Below are positions 65-23,674 of a stretch of DNA of 64,000 bases, in pieces. The position numbers and the translations under genes are program-made. Under the pieces are notes generated by a model that was not told the origin of the DNA, searched no databases, and saw only the letters and a program-made list of their open reading frames with translations. Source of the stretch: a virus (taxonomy: Duplodnaviria > Caudoviricetes); IMG/VR virus record IMGVR_UViG_3300033463_000085, positions 1 to 64,000 of that record. One strand, given 5' to 3'. Position 1 is the first letter of the stretch, and every line of letters begins with the position of its first letter.

Positions 65-2215
65 TTACCAGATTACACAGGCGGGAACGCCCGCACACGC
101 GTAGCACGCGTAGTAGTAGTTGTAGAGGTAGCCCGTGGCGTTGACAATCCACGCATCAAACGAGTAGCCCCGATTGGCCGACCGCAAGCGGCAATAGACC
201 GCCGAGCCGTGATTGTTGACCGCGAACTGTCGACGAGCACGCGCAATCCTGCACTTTGTGGCAAGATAGATGTAGTACGCCTCCGTGATTTCGGCGTAGG
301 CCGTGTTGTTCCACCGCCACATCTTTTTAGTGTCAGTGTCGAAGTAGACATTGGCCGCGTTGCCTGTCGCGGGGAATGAGGCGTATGTGCTCTCCACAAT
401 TGTCTTAGACAGGTAGTCCGTATAGCTCCTGTCGTCGTTGTTCACAACCCCAGTGTATGCACCCGTATCGTCGCGCCAAGCGTATACAAATCCGGTGTCT
501 TCGGCTATGTATGCAACTCCCGACGCGCCAGCAACGGGGAAAGAGGTTCTGTCCGCGAAGTTGCTGATTACGCATCCCGCGTCCAGCATCGCCCCATAGC
601 ACATGTCGCGCCAGTAGGGGAAAGTGCCTCTCTCGTTGGCGTTCACATTGCCATACATCTCGTTGCCGGACGGCAGCCAAAATTCGTCAAGTGTAGTATA
701 CACCGTGGATGGATTGTTCGGCCCGTCTGTGTTTGAGTTTGGCCATGTGGGAATCTTAACCTTCTTCACTGCTGCGAGGAGGTCTGGCGAGCAGCCGCGC
801 TTGTAGCCGTAGCGCGTCCAATGCTGCGGCGGCTGAATCTGCCCCGCGTGCTTCTGCGTCCACCATGCGCCGATGTCCGCGTCGGAGTTTAGATACTGGC
901 GATAGGCCGAATCGCGCCAGTTGTTGTGCCCGTAGCGAATCGCATTTTTTACATAATCGCCGCTCGACACATTGAGGGAGGTTCTGAACACAAGGAAATA
1001 TGTTGCATAGACTGTATCGAGCGAATCTCCTGCGGACAGCGATGTCTGCTTGGTCATGTCCGCTTCGAGCGTGTCGATTGTGACCATGCTCCAGTTTGTA
1101 GAGCCAGTCCACGCTCCGGCGGTGTACGACCCCGATTTGCGCTTGTATATGCGCGTGTCCCCTGCGACAGGGTCGGAATAGTAGACTAAATCATTCTCGG
1201 CATAGCTCGTACTCGTGCTGTACGCTGGAATCTTGCCGTCCGTGAGGTTGCCGACCGCGCCATCGAACTTGGAGGAATCCCAATCAGCGCCAACTGTTGT
1301 CGCGGCCTTGCACCTGTACAGCTTGCCGTCGTATGTGTAGAACTTGCCGGAAGCGCAGGCCGTGTCGGTGTCGAAAGCCCTGACCGTGAATCCGTAGTAG
1401 TATATGCCGTCCTGCGCAACAGACTCTGTGGCGATATCCTGATTGCGCTCGTCGAAAGCAATGGACTCCTGCGTGGCCCACTCGCGCATCATCACCGCGC
1501 CGACATGGGTTTCGCCGTCCTCGCCCTCGAATGCGTCGATGTCCACGCATATCATCGGGTTGCTCTGCGCAGTGCCGCCCTCGGTGGTCCACGTGTCGAG
1601 TATCTTCGCGCCTATTAAAGCATCCTTGATGAACGCAATCGACGCCGCGTCAGCCTCTGATGCCGTGTCGCCTTCGTCTATTCGCTCCGCATACTTGTCG
1701 GCGTAGAGGCGCGACACCGCAGTCTGTATGTGCGAGTAGGTTGTGAGGCGGCTGACGCCGTTTGTCCATCCGGCGTCGAGGTATGTCAGCGTTAGATATG
1801 TCACATTGTCCTCGGCATATCCATCGGCTGTCGTAGGCGAGAAATGGTATGGAACGGAGTCCGTTATGTCTACATGGTAGTGCATTCCGGGCGGAACAAC
1901 AAACGCGACTGGCGAGCCGTTGTAGTTTGTTGTTGCGACCAGAGTTCTGATTCCGCCGTCCGCGACCTCGTAGATGCTTACTGTCTGGTTCTCGACCGCC
2001 ACATCGTCCTGCGTAAGCGCAGTGACGACGACGCGGTTGCCCAACTGCACCATCGCCATCTGCTCTTCGAGAGTTGTGATTCGGTACGCTAGGTTTGTGA
2101 CCTGCGAATATGTCGCGGCACGAACCTTGTTGGTTGTTGTGGTCGCCGCATCAAGGCGCGGCGTTGCAAATAGTGCCGTCGCAAGCGCGAGGCATAGTGC
2201 TGTCAGTTTTTTCAT
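65..2215 (-). CDS. Signal-peptide protein with C-terminal DUF6273/CLec-like domain; probable DGR target (adhesin or receptor-binding protein)
   Basis: N-term MKKLTALCLALATALFATPRLDA; NNWRDSAYRQYLNS, EFWLPSGNE, CRLRSAN...GVPACVIW motifs. Confidence 0.75.
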   Translation of the reverse strand: MKKLTALCLALATALFATPRLDAATTTTNKVRAATYSQVTNLAYRITTLEEQMAMVQLGNRVVVTALTQDDVAVENQTVSIYEVADGGIRTLVATTNYNGSPVAFVVPPGMHYHVDITDSVPYHFSPTTADGYAEDNVTYLTLTYLDAGWTNGVSRLTTYSHIQTAVSRLYADKYAERIDEGDTASEADAASIAFIKDALIGAKILDTWTTEGGTAQSNPMICVDIDAFEGEDGETHVGAVMMREWATQESIAFDERNQDIATESVAQDGIYYYGFTVRAFDTDTACASGKFYTYDGKLYRCKAATTVGADWDSSKFDGAVGNLTDGKIPAYSTSTSYAENDLVYYSDPVAGDTRIYKRKSGSYTAGAWTGSTNWSMVTIDTLEADMTKQTSLSAGDSLDTVYATYFLVFRTSLNVSSGDYVKNAIRYGHNNWRDSAYRQYLNSDADIGAWWTQKHAGQIQPPQHWTRYGYKRGCSPDLLAAVKKVKIPTWPNSNTDGPNNPSTVYTTLDEFWLPSGNEMYGNVNANERGTFPYWRDMCYGAMLDAGCVISNFADRTSFPVAGASGVAYIAEDTGFVYAWRDDTGAYTGVVNNDDRSYTDYLSKTIVESTYASFPATGNAANVYFDTDTKKMWRWNNTAYAEITEAYYIYLATKCRIARARRQFAVNNHGSAVYCRLRSANRGYSFDAWIVNATGYLYNYYYACYACAGVPACVIW
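75..200 (-). repeat. Putative DGR variable region (VR)
   Basis: Run of NNC/NNT codons (TAC, TTT, GAT, ATT, GCC, TGC, TGT) between invariant codons, as expected from AAC/AAT template codons; template not in window. Confidence 0.65.
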
Positions 2216-2218
2216 TGT

Positions 2219-3319
2219 TTATTGTTCCTCTGTTGTTGTTATTTTCACAAAATAGATTTCATCATCGCTAACTACGTCAATGAACATATCGGATGGCACT
2301 GTCGGTACATCCTCCTTGAGGGCTAGTGTGCCATTTTTGTCCGGCAAGGTCAGATACGCCGCGCCATTCATAATGCTACCATAGCCGTATCTTGTGAACG
2401 AGCCCGAATTTTTGTCGTAGACATCAATAAATGTCCCGCCCGCCTCGGCGGAGAATTCTATATAGTAGCCATCGCCAAGCGTCGGGAACAATATTGTCTG
2501 CGTTCCGGTGTTGCCGAGCTTTCCGGCGAGCAAGCCTACCATTACGCCGTGCAGGGCGTTAGTCGATGAATCGGTGTAGCTCTTCGCGTTGCTGACGCCG
2601 TTTTTGAGCGCGTTGGCTGTCGGGGCGTACGATGTCGAGGACGATGTGTAGGTGTCGTTCAGCTGGACTATGCCGGATTGCGAAGTGGAGGCAGAGCGCA
2701 CGGTTTTCTTCGTCGCGGTGATTACGCCGTTCGCGTTCTGCGATATTGTGTCTATGAACTGGTATGTGTTGCCGTTCGCCGACGGGCTGCTGACGGCGCT
2801 CTGCGTCGGCTTGTAGCTTGCCAGCTCCATGCGGCGGACGACGCCGTTGTTTGCGGTCGTGCTCCAGTCGAAGTCGACTGTGGAGCCGTTGCGGTGGACT
2901 GCGACGCCGTTGTGGGCGTACGATGTGTAGTCGTCGCCGTTCTTTGTCCGTATGCCGCCGTAAGGCCCTCCAGTCTGTCCGTCCACGGAGCTTGCGACGG
3001 GGAAGACGATTGTGTTCCCCGCTTCGACCTCGTGGAATCCGGCGGTCGCAAGGATGAAGCTGTTGAGCGAGAATGTGTATGCGCTGTTCCACTTGGTGCG
3101 CTCCGCCGCCGTTATGTGAACCGTGGTGTTCCCCGTGTGATTTGTGAGGTCGGAGCCCTTGGCGAAGCCAGCCGCCGTGCGCACCTGCGCGAGCGTGTTG
3201 GTCGGCGGGACATCCCACCATTCCGTGTTCTCCGTGACGGCCGGAGCGGTGAGCGCGAATGCGATAGCCGCCGCCGCGACCGCGATTCCGGCCAGTATCT
3301 TTCCTGTCTTGTGCTTCAT
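2219..3319 (-). CDS. Signal-peptide protein with phage tail-fibre repeat
   Basis: MKHKTGKILAGIAVAAAAIAFALTAPA leader; ASTSQSGIVQLNDTYTSSSTSYAPTANALK resembles the phage tail-fibre repeat; start refined to ATG 3319. Confidence 0.65.
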   Translation of the reverse strand: MKHKTGKILAGIAVAAAAIAFALTAPAVTENTEWWDVPPTNTLAQVRTAAGFAKGSDLTNHTGNTTVHITAAERTKWNSAYTFSLNSFILATAGFHEVEAGNTIVFPVASSVDGQTGGPYGGIRTKNGDDYTSYAHNGVAVHRNGSTVDFDWSTTANNGVVRRMELASYKPTQSAVSSPSANGNTYQFIDTISQNANGVITATKKTVRSASTSQSGIVQLNDTYTSSSTSYAPTANALKNGVSNAKSYTDSSTNALHGVMVGLLAGKLGNTGTQTILFPTLGDGYYIEFSAEAGGTFIDVYDKNSGSFTRYGYGSIMNGAAYLTLPDKNGTLALKEDVPTVPSDMFIDVVSDDEIYFVKITTTEEQ

Positions 3320-3367
3320 GAGCCGTTTTTCCTTTCTGCTTTGCAAGTCGTTTCTTCCTCGGTGCTC

Positions 3368-3919
3368 CTACTGCGCCACCTTGCCGCCGAGGGCCTTCCA
3401 CAGCCTCTTTGTCGCATCCGCGACCTCGCGGGCTGTCGGAGCGTCCGGCATTTCGTCGCCGTCCATCGCGTTTGCGATTGCGTCGATCTCGTCCTGGAGC
3501 TGCTTTGCGCTCCTGAACTGGTCGAGGTTCGCTGGCGTTCCCTCGCCGAGGCCGAGGGGCCATTCGCCGACGGTATGCTTGGTAGAGAAGTGGAGCTTGC
3601 GGACGCTCCCGATGTCGTCAAGAACCATGTCGCATTCGATTTCTCCGCCGCCAGCCGCCTTGAGGGCTTTCAGCATCCGCACGGTGTTTAGATTTAGGGC
3701 GAAAACGAGGTCGTCGCCGTCAACGGAGAAGGCGTCGTCGTCGGCCAGAGGAAACAGGGCGACGGCGACCCCTGCGTAGATTAGCCGGAAGCGGAGGTCT
3801 TGCGTAAGGATTTGAGCGCAGGAAACGAGCCGGACGGCGATGTGCTCGCCGCCGCTCATCCTCCCCGAAGCCCTCGCGGACTTCGTTTCAAGGTCTGGTG
3901 TTATGGTCAGTTCAGCCAT
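3368..3919 (-). CDS. Hypothetical tail/baseplate-associated protein
   Basis: Clean 183-aa ORF with RBS and late motif; C-terminus resembles that of the collagen-like protein. Confidence 0.7.
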   Translation of the reverse strand: MAELTITPDLETKSARASGRMSGGEHIAVRLVSCAQILTQDLRFRLIYAGVAVALFPLADDDAFSVDGDDLVFALNLNTVRMLKALKAAGGGEIECDMVLDDIGSVRKLHFSTKHTVGEWPLGLGEGTPANLDQFRSAKQLQDEIDAIANAMDGDEMPDAPTAREVADATKRLWKALGGKVAQ

Positions 3920-3949: not shown

Positions 3950-6653
<2,704 letters not shown>

Positions 6654-15592: not shown

Positions 15593-15623
15593 ATCGCGTC
15601 CGAACATGGGAAAGGAAACAAAC

Positions 15624-16334
15624 ATGAAACGGACACTATTTGCCGTCGCCGTGGCCGCCGCGTCGATTGCGGCGCTTGCCGGGACAACCCCCAATAGGCT
15701 CGGCGATTCCGCCTCAAGGCGCAAGACCCACGCAGCGCAGTCGGCCAAGGCGCTTGACGACAAGCGCGACAGGAAGGCTGTCGCGGAGGCGGCTAAAACT
15801 AACCCCGGAAGGACGCTCGGCATAAAGGACTTCTGCGGCAGGAAGTTCGGCGAAAAGGGCGACGGGCGCGATGTTGTCGTCGAACAGGCGGACAGGCCGT
15901 ATTTCGGCGGCTACACGAAACTGCGGCTAAAATACTCGCCGTCGGCTGGGCTCTATTCCATAACGGCCATAAACGACGACTCCTTCGCCATCGGCGACAA
16001 GGACAATGAGCTAGAGCGAATAATGAGAATCGTCGAGAATCACTTTAAGATTCGCTTCTCCGGCGGCATAGTCCGTCGCAACAACAGGGAATACGGGCAG
16101 GAGTTCGGCGTCAGCGCGGTTGGCAACAGCGTCACGGGCGGGATTTCCGGCTACAGGCCGTCGTCGAGAAGCGTTGTGACGAAGCCAGCGACGCGATGGA
16201 CGAGCGTTGTTTCCGAGGAGTTCAAGGATGTGCGCATCTCGATACGCGCCGTTGCGGACAGGGAGAAAGACAAGACATTCGTTGAGTTCACGGTCGAGCT
16301 GAAACCGCCGAGCGCGGCCAGCAAGGCGAAGTAG
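15624..16334 (+). CDS. Secreted moron protein (counter-oriented insert in tail operon)
   Basis: MKRTLFAVAVAAASIAALAG signal peptide, AAAGGA RBS, own promoter. Confidence 0.75.
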   Translation: MKRTLFAVAVAAASIAALAGTTPNRLGDSASRRKTHAAQSAKALDDKRDRKAVAEAAKTNPGRTLGIKDFCGRKFGEKGDGRDVVVEQADRPYFGGYTKLRLKYSPSAGLYSITAINDDSFAIGDKDNELERIMRIVENHFKIRFSGGIVRRNNREYGQEFGVSAVGNSVTGGISGYRPSSRSVVTKPATRWTSVVSEEFKDVRISIRAVADREKDKTFVEFTVELKPPSAASKAK

Positions 16335-22218: not shown

Positions 22219-23622
22219 CTACGCCTTGAGCGAGCGTATGTAGTCCACGAGCCGGGTGCGCTCCGCTGCCGAAAGTCCGTCCACAATGCGCCGCGCCTCC
22301 TTGAATCCGGCGGAACAAGGCGGCTCTTTGGCCGACAGGCCGGAGCCAGAGGGCGGACGCGCTTCAAGTATCGCGCTGTCCGGCGGTTGTTCTGCGGCAA
22401 TGTCTATCACATCGGGGAGCGCGTCGGCCAGCTGCTGCCTGTGCGCCTCCGCGTCGCCGTGGAAATAGTGCGATGTCATCATCGGGCTGGCATGGCCGAC
22501 TATGCTCTGCACATAGGCGAGGGGCATTCCTCCGTTGCCGCACAGGCTAACGAATGTGTGCCGGAGCGAATGGAAGCCTACGACGGTCACCTTGCGCGAA
22601 TAGCCGTCCACGGTCGCTGTCGTGGCAATCCCGGCCTTTTCGAACAAGTCTTGTATATTGGAAACGAGCGAGGAGTTGTCGCGTTCGTATTGCTCCGCCG
22701 TGACCGGAAGCACATACGGCGACCCCTCCGTGCGCGGCGCGTCCTTGAGGACGGCCTGGAGCGACGGATGGAGGCTCATCGTCACGAGCGTTCCGGCCTT
22801 GGCCGTCTTGCGCGGGAGGACATGGATTAGACCGCGCCCAAGGTCTATCGAATCCCATTTGAGGAGGGCGCAGTCGCCGAGCCGGAGGCCTGTGTAGATT
22901 CCGAGCGCGAACAGGATGCGCATTTCGCCCTCAAGCAACGCGCACACCTTCGCAAGCTCCTCGACGGACAGCGCACGCCGTCCCCTCTGCCGCTTGTCGC
23001 CGCGCCGTTCGAACTCGGCCCAAGCGTCGTCCTTGGCGCGTATCTCGCGGGCGAGCTTCTTCCACATCAGCCGCATGAGCGCCAGATATTTGTTGTGGGT
23101 GTTCGCCGAGAACTTCTCGCCGATGCCGTGAAGGAACTTCGCCGCCGTCTCTCTATTCAACTGCCGAAGCTCGCCGACATCCGGCGCGTTGGCCTTTAGC
23201 CATTCGACGAGCCGACCGAACTGGCTCTCGTACATATCCATCGTCGCCGATGATGTGCGTCCCATCCGCTCGCGGAACAGGGCGAACGCGTCCTTGAACG
23301 AGAGGGCTGGCTTCTCGTCCTCGTATCGCTGGATTTCCGCCTTTACCCCGCCGAGCCGGACGATTGCGTTCTGTAGACTTGCGGCCTCGTCGCGGAGGAC
23401 ATAGTGGCGCATCTCCTTGGCAAGCCTCTCCTCCGCCTGTCGCTTGTTCGAGGTCTTGAGGGATTTTGTGTGAATCTTTCCGGCGACAATCCATCGCCCA
23501 AAGTAGGTGTTGCCCCGCTTTACCAAGGAACCCTTGCCCTTTGCCCGCTGCTTCTGCGGCGATTTGTCCCCGCGTTCCTTCGAGGGTGCGGGGCGTGAAG
23601 TCGTGTTTTCGCTCTTGCGCAT
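22219..23622 (-). CDS. int: Tyrosine integrase
   Basis: TGLRLGD, FHSLRHTF, VGH...MTSHY catalytic R-H-x-x-R-H-Y residues; start may be 23643. Confidence 0.95.
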   Translation of the reverse strand: MRKSENTTSRPAPSKERGDKSPQKQRAKGKGSLVKRGNTYFGRWIVAGKIHTKSLKTSNKRQAEERLAKEMRHYVLRDEAASLQNAIVRLGGVKAEIQRYEDEKPALSFKDAFALFRERMGRTSSATMDMYESQFGRLVEWLKANAPDVGELRQLNRETAAKFLHGIGEKFSANTHNKYLALMRLMWKKLAREIRAKDDAWAEFERRGDKRQRGRRALSVEELAKVCALLEGEMRILFALGIYTGLRLGDCALLKWDSIDLGRGLIHVLPRKTAKAGTLVTMSLHPSLQAVLKDAPRTEGSPYVLPVTAEQYERDNSSLVSNIQDLFEKAGIATTATVDGYSRKVTVVGFHSLRHTFVSLCGNGGMPLAYVQSIVGHASPMMTSHYFHGDAEAHRQQLADALPDVIDIAAEQPPDSAILEARPPSGSGLSAKEPPCSAGFKEARRIVDGLSAAERTRLVDYIRSLKA

Positions 23623-23674
23623 TGTGGCGCAATATGATACCATATATTCCGCATTAGGTAAAGGGCGAAAACTG

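Follow-up and report, generated by a model that had tools for sequence, protein, structure and literature searches.

The window analysed here, a 64,000-nucleotide stretch of DNA, belongs to an uncultured phage from a bovine gut metagenome with a circular map of 76.6 kb. The presence of an integrase indicates that the phage is temperate. Its terminase has distant matches in the known-phage collection (≤37% identity), and two scans of genome contigs returned no relative. The genes of interest (Table 1) are closely packed on the late strand, with 48 nt between ORF3 and ORF2 and 3 nt between ORF2 and ORF1. The first-pass annotation placed ORF2 and ORF1 at the end of the tail operon. They do lie among late-strand fibre genes, but the position is not strictly terminal, since on the circular map they are followed by Avd, the TR, the RT, lysis-like genes and a Mu gp36-like gene. 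No sigma-70-like site was found before ORF2 or ORF1, where sigma-70 may not be the promoter type of the host, and neither gene is preceded by a copy of the phage's recurrent upstream motif. The tight packing behind ORF3 and the lack of a promoter-like site fit late, lytic expression, which suits a part of the virion better than an adhesin of the lysogen.

Table 1. Coordinates of the leader-bearing genes and their neighbours in the window.
Feature	Position	Strand	Description
ORF1	65..2215	minus	716 aa, DGR variable protein
ORF2	2219..3319	minus	366 aa, fibre-repeat protein (Phage_fiber_2) with leader
ORF1 leader	2147..2215	minus	codons 1-23
ORF2 leader	3239..3319	minus	codons 1-27
VR of DGR	70..207	minus	within ORF1 C-terminus
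ORF3	3368..3919	minus	183 aa, without leader
Collagen-like tail fibre	3960..6641	minus	893 aa, without leader; the phage's other candidate receptor-binding fibre

The first reading of the sequence had named a DGR target among the two proteins; the DGR is genuine and active, and ORF1 is its target. Sixteen of the 18 mismatches between TR and VR fall at TR adenines, and there are two alleles of the VR, the second of which lies in the end overlap of the assembly. The TR itself is outside the window, at about G000 75974-76104, and an RT gene (RVT_1, E 3.9e-7) and an Avd-like gene with a weak match (phrog_3206, E 2.3e-4) lie past the circular junction on the downstream side. In at least four of the cassettes (those of the window, L093, L085 and L087), the RT is followed by a conserved protein of 129 aa that bears a signal.

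Behind its leader, ORF1 is composed of a predicted helix, a transthyretin-like beta-sandwich, a beta-rich middle, a putatively C-type-lectin-like DUF6273 domain (Pfam, E 4.1e-7) and the C-terminal VR; DUF6273 has been reported to be CLec-like (PMC10743442). The structural model of ORF1 has a mean pLDDT of 64.7 and is poor in the lectin region (<50); with this model, Foldseek gave weak fibre and transthyretin-like matches and no lectin, and the N-terminal part weakly resembles the fibres of Agrobacterium phages 7-7-1 and Milano. The mature part contains 11 cysteines. The model of ORF2 is unusable (mean pLDDT 35.5). The tail-fibre repeat noted in the first pass is borne out by a Pfam match of ORF2 to Phage_fiber_2 (residues 211-249, E 7.5e-7) and by tail-fibre PHROGs, so that fibre-type repeats or domains are found in ORF2 and, through the weak fold matches, in ORF1. 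In a sequence search of solved structures, ORF1 matched designer-propeller repeats only and ORF2 had no match. Pfam found no S74-type domain here, and an N-terminal tail-attachment domain is absent from both proteins, whose mature parts begin right past the leader.

Both leaders have the basic, hydrophobic, Ala-x-Ala character first ascribed to them. That of ORF1 has two Lys ahead of a continuous apolar stretch of about 14 residues, with Ala at positions -3 and -1, while that of ORF2 has three Lys, a continuous core of about 19 residues and an Ala-Pro-Ala site, with a conserved Trp-Trp motif behind it. The best windows of the two cores have mean Kyte-Doolittle values of 2.4-2.7. Each leader thus combines a charged n-region, an h-region, small residues at -3 and -1 and no Pro at +1, as for Sec and signal peptidase I. 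Lipoprotein, Tat and prepilin signals were considered and rejected, as the motifs are absent: Cys8 of ORF1 is preceded by Leu at -1, there is no lipobox, and neither leader contains an RR motif. The RBSs GAGGAA and GAAAGG, of a type used elsewhere in the phage, lie 9-10 nt 5' of the two ATGs. A mis-called start, with true translation beginning downstream, was also rejected. Judged from the sequence, both leaders must be translated, because homology to relatives begins immediately past each of them and no alternative start intervenes. Leader-type starts occur in about five of the roughly 93 heuristically called ORFs of the 76.6-kb phage; the leader rule, a crude heuristic, flags six of the 93, two of which are antisense artefacts, and the fifth genuine case (129 aa) was added by hand.

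Whether homologues share the leader depends on which homologues are considered. It is present in every syntenic relative, even where the target family has been swapped, but about 90-94% of the members of the wider family are without it and have other N-termini instead. In the syntenic loci L088, L089 and L094, the DUF6273 target is replaced by an unrelated family that also bears a leader, and all three are true DGR targets; retention of the leader after such a swap suggests that the position demands it. Close relatives are identical or nearly so in leader DNA. When the leaders of the second target family are compared across four relatives, 7-24 of 30 codons differ, yet a Met-Lys-Lys start, an apolar core, a small-x-small site and the mature N-terminus are retained. 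The leaders thus appear to drift in sequence while keeping their character, which is how signal peptides evolve. P0123 and P0124 carry a diverged yet equivalent ORF1-type leader, and the more distant homologue P0127 has a lipoprotein-type leader with a lipobox, which would represent an independent export signal. Nine further phage-like DGR cassettes have targets with leaders, and the phage-like loci with leader-bearing DGR targets number at least ten in all, spread over two unrelated families of target.

Other, likewise more distant homologues (P0126, P0131, P0137 and the 609-aa fibre of L085) begin instead with N-domains like those of ORF3 or the collagen fibre and have no N-terminal leader, so that the leader seems to occupy the place taken elsewhere by an attachment domain. 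P0005 and P0006 are natural fusions of an N-domain, an apolar segment and an ORF2-like body, in which the segment lies 180 residues into the protein and is not preceded by an RBS. Such an internal site is impossible for a classical cleaved signal, which counts against the reading favoured below.

The C-terminal tail of ORF2 is of the type that matches a DUF6273-type target, and the tail type of ORF2-like proteins tracks the downstream target family. The first type occurs in two independent lineages (the window with the near-identical L093, and L085), and the other goes with the second target family in four loci (L088, L089, L091 and L094). From this we infer that ORF2 probably pairs with ORF1. 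The two share a reading frame, which we regard as chance because it is kept in only two of five junctions.

ORF3, directly upstream of ORF2, is a conserved 'stub' that consists of the N-domain alone. Its homologues in other phages are the N-termini of fibres and targets that have no leader, and it shares a C-terminal motif with the collagen fibre; searches of Pfam and PHROGs gave no match for ORF3, for the small secreted proteins or for the second target family. ORF3 and ORF2 are in one frame, parted by a single TAG, and this same-frame, single-stop arrangement is found in three intergenic versions (TAG, TAG with a 12-nt insert, and TGA) with no further stops.

Signal or lipoprotein leaders are known from cellular DGR variable proteins such as Treponema TvpA and Legionella LdtA. 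The proteins of this class (Roux et al. 2021, PMC8144416) resemble ORF1 in their C-terminal VR, putatively lectin-like in ORF1, adenine mutagenesis, N-terminal export signal and presumed extracytoplasmic binding. They are encoded, however, on cell chromosomes or islands, whereas ORF1 belongs to a complete, temperate tailed phage, where it lies with the tail-fibre genes and behind a fibre-repeat protein that has a leader as well. Phages also carry secreted 'moron' proteins beside their tail-fibre genes, among them Lom and Bor of lambda and Llp of T5. Signal-peptide genes are likewise carried by Porphyromonas phages (Matrishin 2023, PMC10367356). Such proteins have export signals, act on the host envelope and are often encoded at the tail-fibre end of the genome, but they are small, unrelated to fibres and usually served by their own promoter, in contrast to the fibre-like, hypermutated proteins described here, which are tightly coupled to late genes. 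Bdellovibrio MAT fibres (Caulton et al. 2024, PMC10769870) resemble phage tail fibres, begin with a signal peptide and serve as adhesins at the cell surface. Unlike ORF1 and ORF2 they are cell-encoded, and unlike ORF1 they are not DGR targets. Their leader is followed by a conserved domain of 130 aa, and an S74 chaperone-protease is often present.

The nearest phage systems are the targets of BPP-1 (Mtd), the DUF6273 targets or tentaclins (PMC10743442) and that of the Bacteroides Hankyphage (PMC6199706). These share with the present locus the cassette of target, Avd, TR and RT, the DUF6273 or CLec-type domain and the adjoining fibre genes. They are, however, attached to the virion and have no signal peptide (PMC6199706), whereas here a leader replaces the N-terminal attachment domain. 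The first-pass annotation called the leaders unusual, in agreement with the statement that phage DGR proteins lack signal peptides (Benler 2018, PMC6199706). What is new here is a phage DGR target with a secretion-type leader.

The anatomy of the leaders, their rarity in the phage and their conservation in relatives make Sec export of ORF1 and ORF2 likely, as far as sequence can indicate. We suggest that ORF2 as a fibre-like shaft and ORF1 as a putatively lectin-like tip rewritten by the DGR would cross the cytoplasmic membrane via Sec, that signal peptidase I probably removes their leaders, and that the mature proteins, which most likely form a matched pair, would work outside the cytoplasm. 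Translocation, cleavage and final location are what we infer from these features. Surveys place signal peptides on cellular and not on phage DGR targets (PMC6199706, PMC8144416). Because of this association with cells, and because the phage is temperate and has a separate leaderless collagen fibre, we lean weakly towards a host-envelope fate over cytoplasmic tail assembly: the two proteins may stay in the periplasm or at the surface as a phage-supplied, diversifiable binding device. The reading as a whole, in which both N-termini are working Sec signal peptides and the proteins act outside the cytoplasm, preferably at the host envelope, is one that we hold tentatively.

Alternatively, ORF2 and ORF1 might be exported and, once folded in the periplasm, be added to completed particles at lysis or later, docking on ORF3 or the collagen fibre, with the DGR changing host range as in BPP-1. 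The late-operon position, in which no promoter of their own was found, agrees with such a fate, and so do the in-frame ORF3 stub, a conserved N-domain that adjoins them upstream, and the weak likeness of the ORF1 model to the 7-7-1 and Milano fibres. The bodies of both proteins are homologous to fibres and targets that elsewhere are fused to virion-attachment N-domains, an observation that also runs against a host-envelope fate. Disulfides between cysteines of mature ORF1 could form once the protein is outside the cytoplasm, but this carries little weight, since the two invariant cysteines also occur in leaderless homologues. Against incorporation into virions, no account was found in the literature of how a protein from the periplasm might enter a tailed virion, P0127 as a lipoprotein-type homologue would be membrane-bound, and the docking site is conjectural. 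On balance we regard this route as rather unlikely. Its fuller version is unlikely: a temperate gut phage lineage would build the DGR-diversified, outermost part of its host-recognition apparatus outside the cytoplasm, through Sec export, a shaft and tip formed in the periplasm and docking on the ORF3 stub at lysis, which would give a tailed phage a second assembly step, beyond the cytoplasm.

It is quite improbable that the apolar segment is an uncleaved anchor, or part of an ORF3-ORF2 read-through fusion, so that the fibre is tethered in the inner membrane with its N-domain in the cytoplasm and its body outside. P0005 and P0006 are natural fusions of this build, and the frame between ORF3 and ORF2 is kept with one stop in all three intergenic versions. 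The 19-residue core of ORF2 is long enough for an uncleaved anchor, which is also a point against the host-envelope reading. However, ORF2 is preceded by a good RBS of its own and its Ala-x-Ala site is good, the 14-residue core of ORF1 is too short to anchor, no suppressor tRNA is present, and preservation of the frame in two further independent cases would still arise by chance about 1 time in 9. It is about as improbable that the N-termini have no export function in the real host and are, for example, a hydrophobic helix used for trimerisation or docking by a fibre assembled in the cytoplasm, with a convergent resemblance to signal peptides. The internal copy in P0005 and P0006 indicates that the segment need not lie at an N-terminus, but the complete n/h/c anatomy is found again on small neighbouring proteins as well as on two unrelated target families, it is kept while the sequence drifts freely, and a lipobox variant exists in P0127.

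Surveys of DGRs divide cellular from phage targets by the signal peptide, and the phage-like loci assembled here fall on the wrong side of that division. Should the proteins remain on the host, the phage would equip its lysogen with a surface binder that diversifies itself. Should they end up on virions, the assembly of tailed phages would include an extracytoplasmic step that is absent from textbooks. Under either fate, the predicted mature N-termini offer a concrete target for proteomics of virions and of the envelope.

The first-pass annotation had proposed that two tail-fibre-like proteins, ORF1 (the 716-aa DGR target) and ORF2 (a 366-aa fibre-repeat protein), begin with Sec-like leaders, and a rule that asks for a net positive charge in the n-region, then 10 or more uncharged residues in a row containing a 9-residue window of strong hydrophobicity, and finally small residues at -3 and -1, bears this out. 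ORF1 has two lysines, a core of ~14 residues and an expected cleavage after residue 23; the corresponding values for ORF2 are three, ~19 and residue 27. Inspection of both N-termini for a lipobox and a twin-arginine motif found neither in either protein. Ribosome-binding sites of the type seen elsewhere in the phage precede both start codons, and homology to relatives begins directly past each leader with no start codon in between, indicating that the leaders are translated.

Such N-termini are scarce in this phage. Among 93 ORFs called with a codon-position GC heuristic the rule picks six, two of them antisense artefacts inside real genes, leaving ORF1, ORF2, a 242-aa plus-strand gene and a 228-aa lysis-region gene; a fifth leader-bearing ORF, of 129 aa and located after the reverse transcriptase (RT), was masked by an overlapping ORF in the heuristic call. 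The 242-aa gene, which lies on the opposite strand within the tail module and matches no family, looks like a moron.

Coordinates of the features discussed (window positions unless a record or locus is named)
Feature	Position	Strand	Match or remark
ORF1	65-2215	minus	DUF6273 (Pfam)
ORF2	2219-3319	minus	Phage_fiber_2 (Pfam); several tail-fibre PHROGs
ORF3 (183 aa, leaderless)	3368-3919	minus	48 nt upstream of ORF2
Collagen-like fibre gene	3960-6641	minus	many tail-fibre PHROGs
ORF3-ORF2 spacer	3319-3370		one TAG and 16 stop-free codons
C-terminal motif, collagen fibre and ORF3	3960-4060; 3368-3470		~25 residues
242-aa gene	15606-16334	plus	signal-like N-terminus
Integrase gene	22219-23643		beside glycosyltransferase genes
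129-aa gene	G000 (whole record) 74382-74771; L004:10382-10771	minus	outside the window; overlaps RT gene end
End overlap	1-287; G000 76619-76902		96% identical
Signal-like run, metagenome contig	L090:8686-16091		137-kb contig
Distal tail regions, integrated prophage	L091:7014-14946; L092:7038-13286		consecutive leader-bearing proteins

ORF2 and ORF1 are separated by 3 nt, with ORF3 and the collagen-like fibre gene upstream of the pair. The IMG/VR record, of 76,902 bases and rated complete, is covered by the window over bases 1-64000, and its end repeats the first 287 bases at 96% identity, which implies a circular or terminally redundant genome whose unit is ~76.6 kb. All differences in this overlap fall within the DGR variable region (VR), which is probably why IMG/VR classed a complete circular genome as linear. 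The record is that of a temperate tailed phage, encoding terminase, portal, head protease, integrase and glycosyltransferase together with a weak major-head-protein match (E 4.4e-6); its source is a bovine gut metagenome, with partial matches in other gut samples. The integrase gene occupies an unusual place, between the head and tail modules and on the same strand.

The DGR is real and active. An Avd-like gene (a weak match to phrog_3206), the template repeat and the RT gene (RVT_1) are found downstream of ORF1, beyond the junction. A 135-base alignment of template and VR contains 18 mismatches, and template adenines account for 16 of these. The end overlap of the assembly includes two copies of the VR, which differ at nine positions and by a 3-nt indel, so the population was heterogeneous. 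The 129-aa protein has a signal-like N-terminus and no Pfam match; homologues follow the RT in five other loci (L093, L085, L087, L089 and L091, the L091 copy lacking a leader as called), and it seems to be a secreted, so far unnamed member of these DGR cassettes.

How far the leaders are conserved depends on the breadth of the comparison. A tape-measure-to-fibre backbone is common to five syntenic phages (the window, L093, L088, L094 and the more distant L089), and in all five both the ORF2-like protein and the next gene product carry a leader. In L088, L094 and L089 this next gene is not DUF6273 but belongs to an unrelated family with a different C-terminus and no Pfam match, whose members there are true DGR targets. 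Between four loci, 7-24 of 30 leader codons in this second family differ, while the same start, apolar core and small-x-small site are kept ahead of a conserved mature N-terminus; such drift with retained anatomy is how signal peptides evolve. Further leader-bearing, adenine-mutated targets occur in L085, L091, L095 and L096 (all near 60% GC), and L087 (47.5% GC) has an adenine-mutated target with a lipoprotein-type leader. The expectation of conserved leaders thus holds among syntenic phages but fails in the wider families, where about 9 of 160 ORF1-family representatives, 12 of 120 ORF2 relatives and none of 80 retrieved IMG/VR loci pass the rule. By these counts only a minority has a leader. 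The N-termini of leaderless homologues are of other kinds (an ORF3-like domain in P0126, one resembling that of the collagen fibre in P0131, and in P0137 a fibre shaft fused directly where the mature leader-bearing protein starts), so the leader occupies the position held elsewhere by a virion-attachment module.

Leaders also occur on other tails. L091 and L092 represent an integrated prophage whose tail is different, and there leaders occur on several distal tail-region proteins in a row: four in L091, one of which is the DGR target, and three in L092, where the putative target lacks one. Each locus has one further protein with an internal apolar segment. The trait is wider than the window's lineage. 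On the metagenome contig L090, at least eight genes in a row after a tail-fibre gene have signal-like N-termini; one exosortase-like fragment breaks the series, which includes an ORF2 relative, P0008.

ORF3 matches the N-terminus of a leaderless 609-aa fibre of L085 (44% identity over 124 aligned residues, residues 1-120 of each), and that fibre ends in the same ~20-residue tail as ORF2; taken together, ORF3 and ORF2 thus look as if such a fibre had been split in two. The tail type tracks the downstream target, one accompanying DUF6273 (window, L093, L085) and the other the second family (L088, L089, L091, L094); the window and L088 have ORF3 and most of ORF2 in common, with tail and target differing together. 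We take this co-change to point to an interaction of shaft and tip, but the place of recombination alone could also account for it. ORF3 and ORF2 share a frame with a single stop between them in three different intergenic versions; a 12-nt insert leaves the frame intact in L094, and so do the TGA stop and different spacer of L089. Read-through of the stop is possible; a search of the phage genome for a suppressor tRNA found none. P0005 and P0006 are natural fusions, each a single ORF that joins an N-domain, the apolar segment without a preceding ribosome-binding site and an ORF2-like body; they are at odds with a simple cleaved signal and leave room for a reading as an anchor or as read-through. 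A motif at the C-terminus of the collagen fibre recurs at that of ORF3, the two being 45% identical over 33 residues, and a similar one precedes the apolar segment of P0005 and of P0137; its role may lie in docking or trimerisation.

In the ORF1 model (mean pLDDT 64.7) the leader is helical and is followed by a long helix at residues 26-56, a beta-sandwich at 60-145 and a beta-rich middle of fair confidence, with the lectin region and VR poorly modelled; Foldseek matched it weakly to fibres from two Agrobacterium phages, 7-7-1 and Milano, and to transthyretin-like sandwiches. The ORF2 model was unusable.

Phage DGR proteins are stated to be without signal peptides (Benler 2018, PMC6199706), and no target of a phage DGR bearing one came up in our literature searches. 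Bdellovibrio MAT fibres (PMC10769870) are fibre-like adhesins with signal peptides, but are cell-encoded; signal-peptide genes of Porphyromonas phages (PMC10367356) were interpreted as envelope modifiers. Summed over the readings that include it, export of ORF1 and ORF2 by Sec is likely. Their genes lie tightly packed on the late strand, neither a promoter-like site nor the phage's recurrent upstream motif was found before ORF2 or ORF1, the bodies of the two proteins serve elsewhere as parts of fibres, and ORF3 resembles a waiting stub; all of this would suit proteins that become virion parts after export, an outcome we nevertheless regard as rather unlikely. Our favoured, if tentative, reading is that after Sec export ORF1 and ORF2 would act in the host envelope, because a lipoprotein-type leader variant exists, because the phage is temperate and has another fibre, and because cellular DGR targets are known carriers of such signals, most of their clusters having signal peptides (Roux 2021, PMC8144416).
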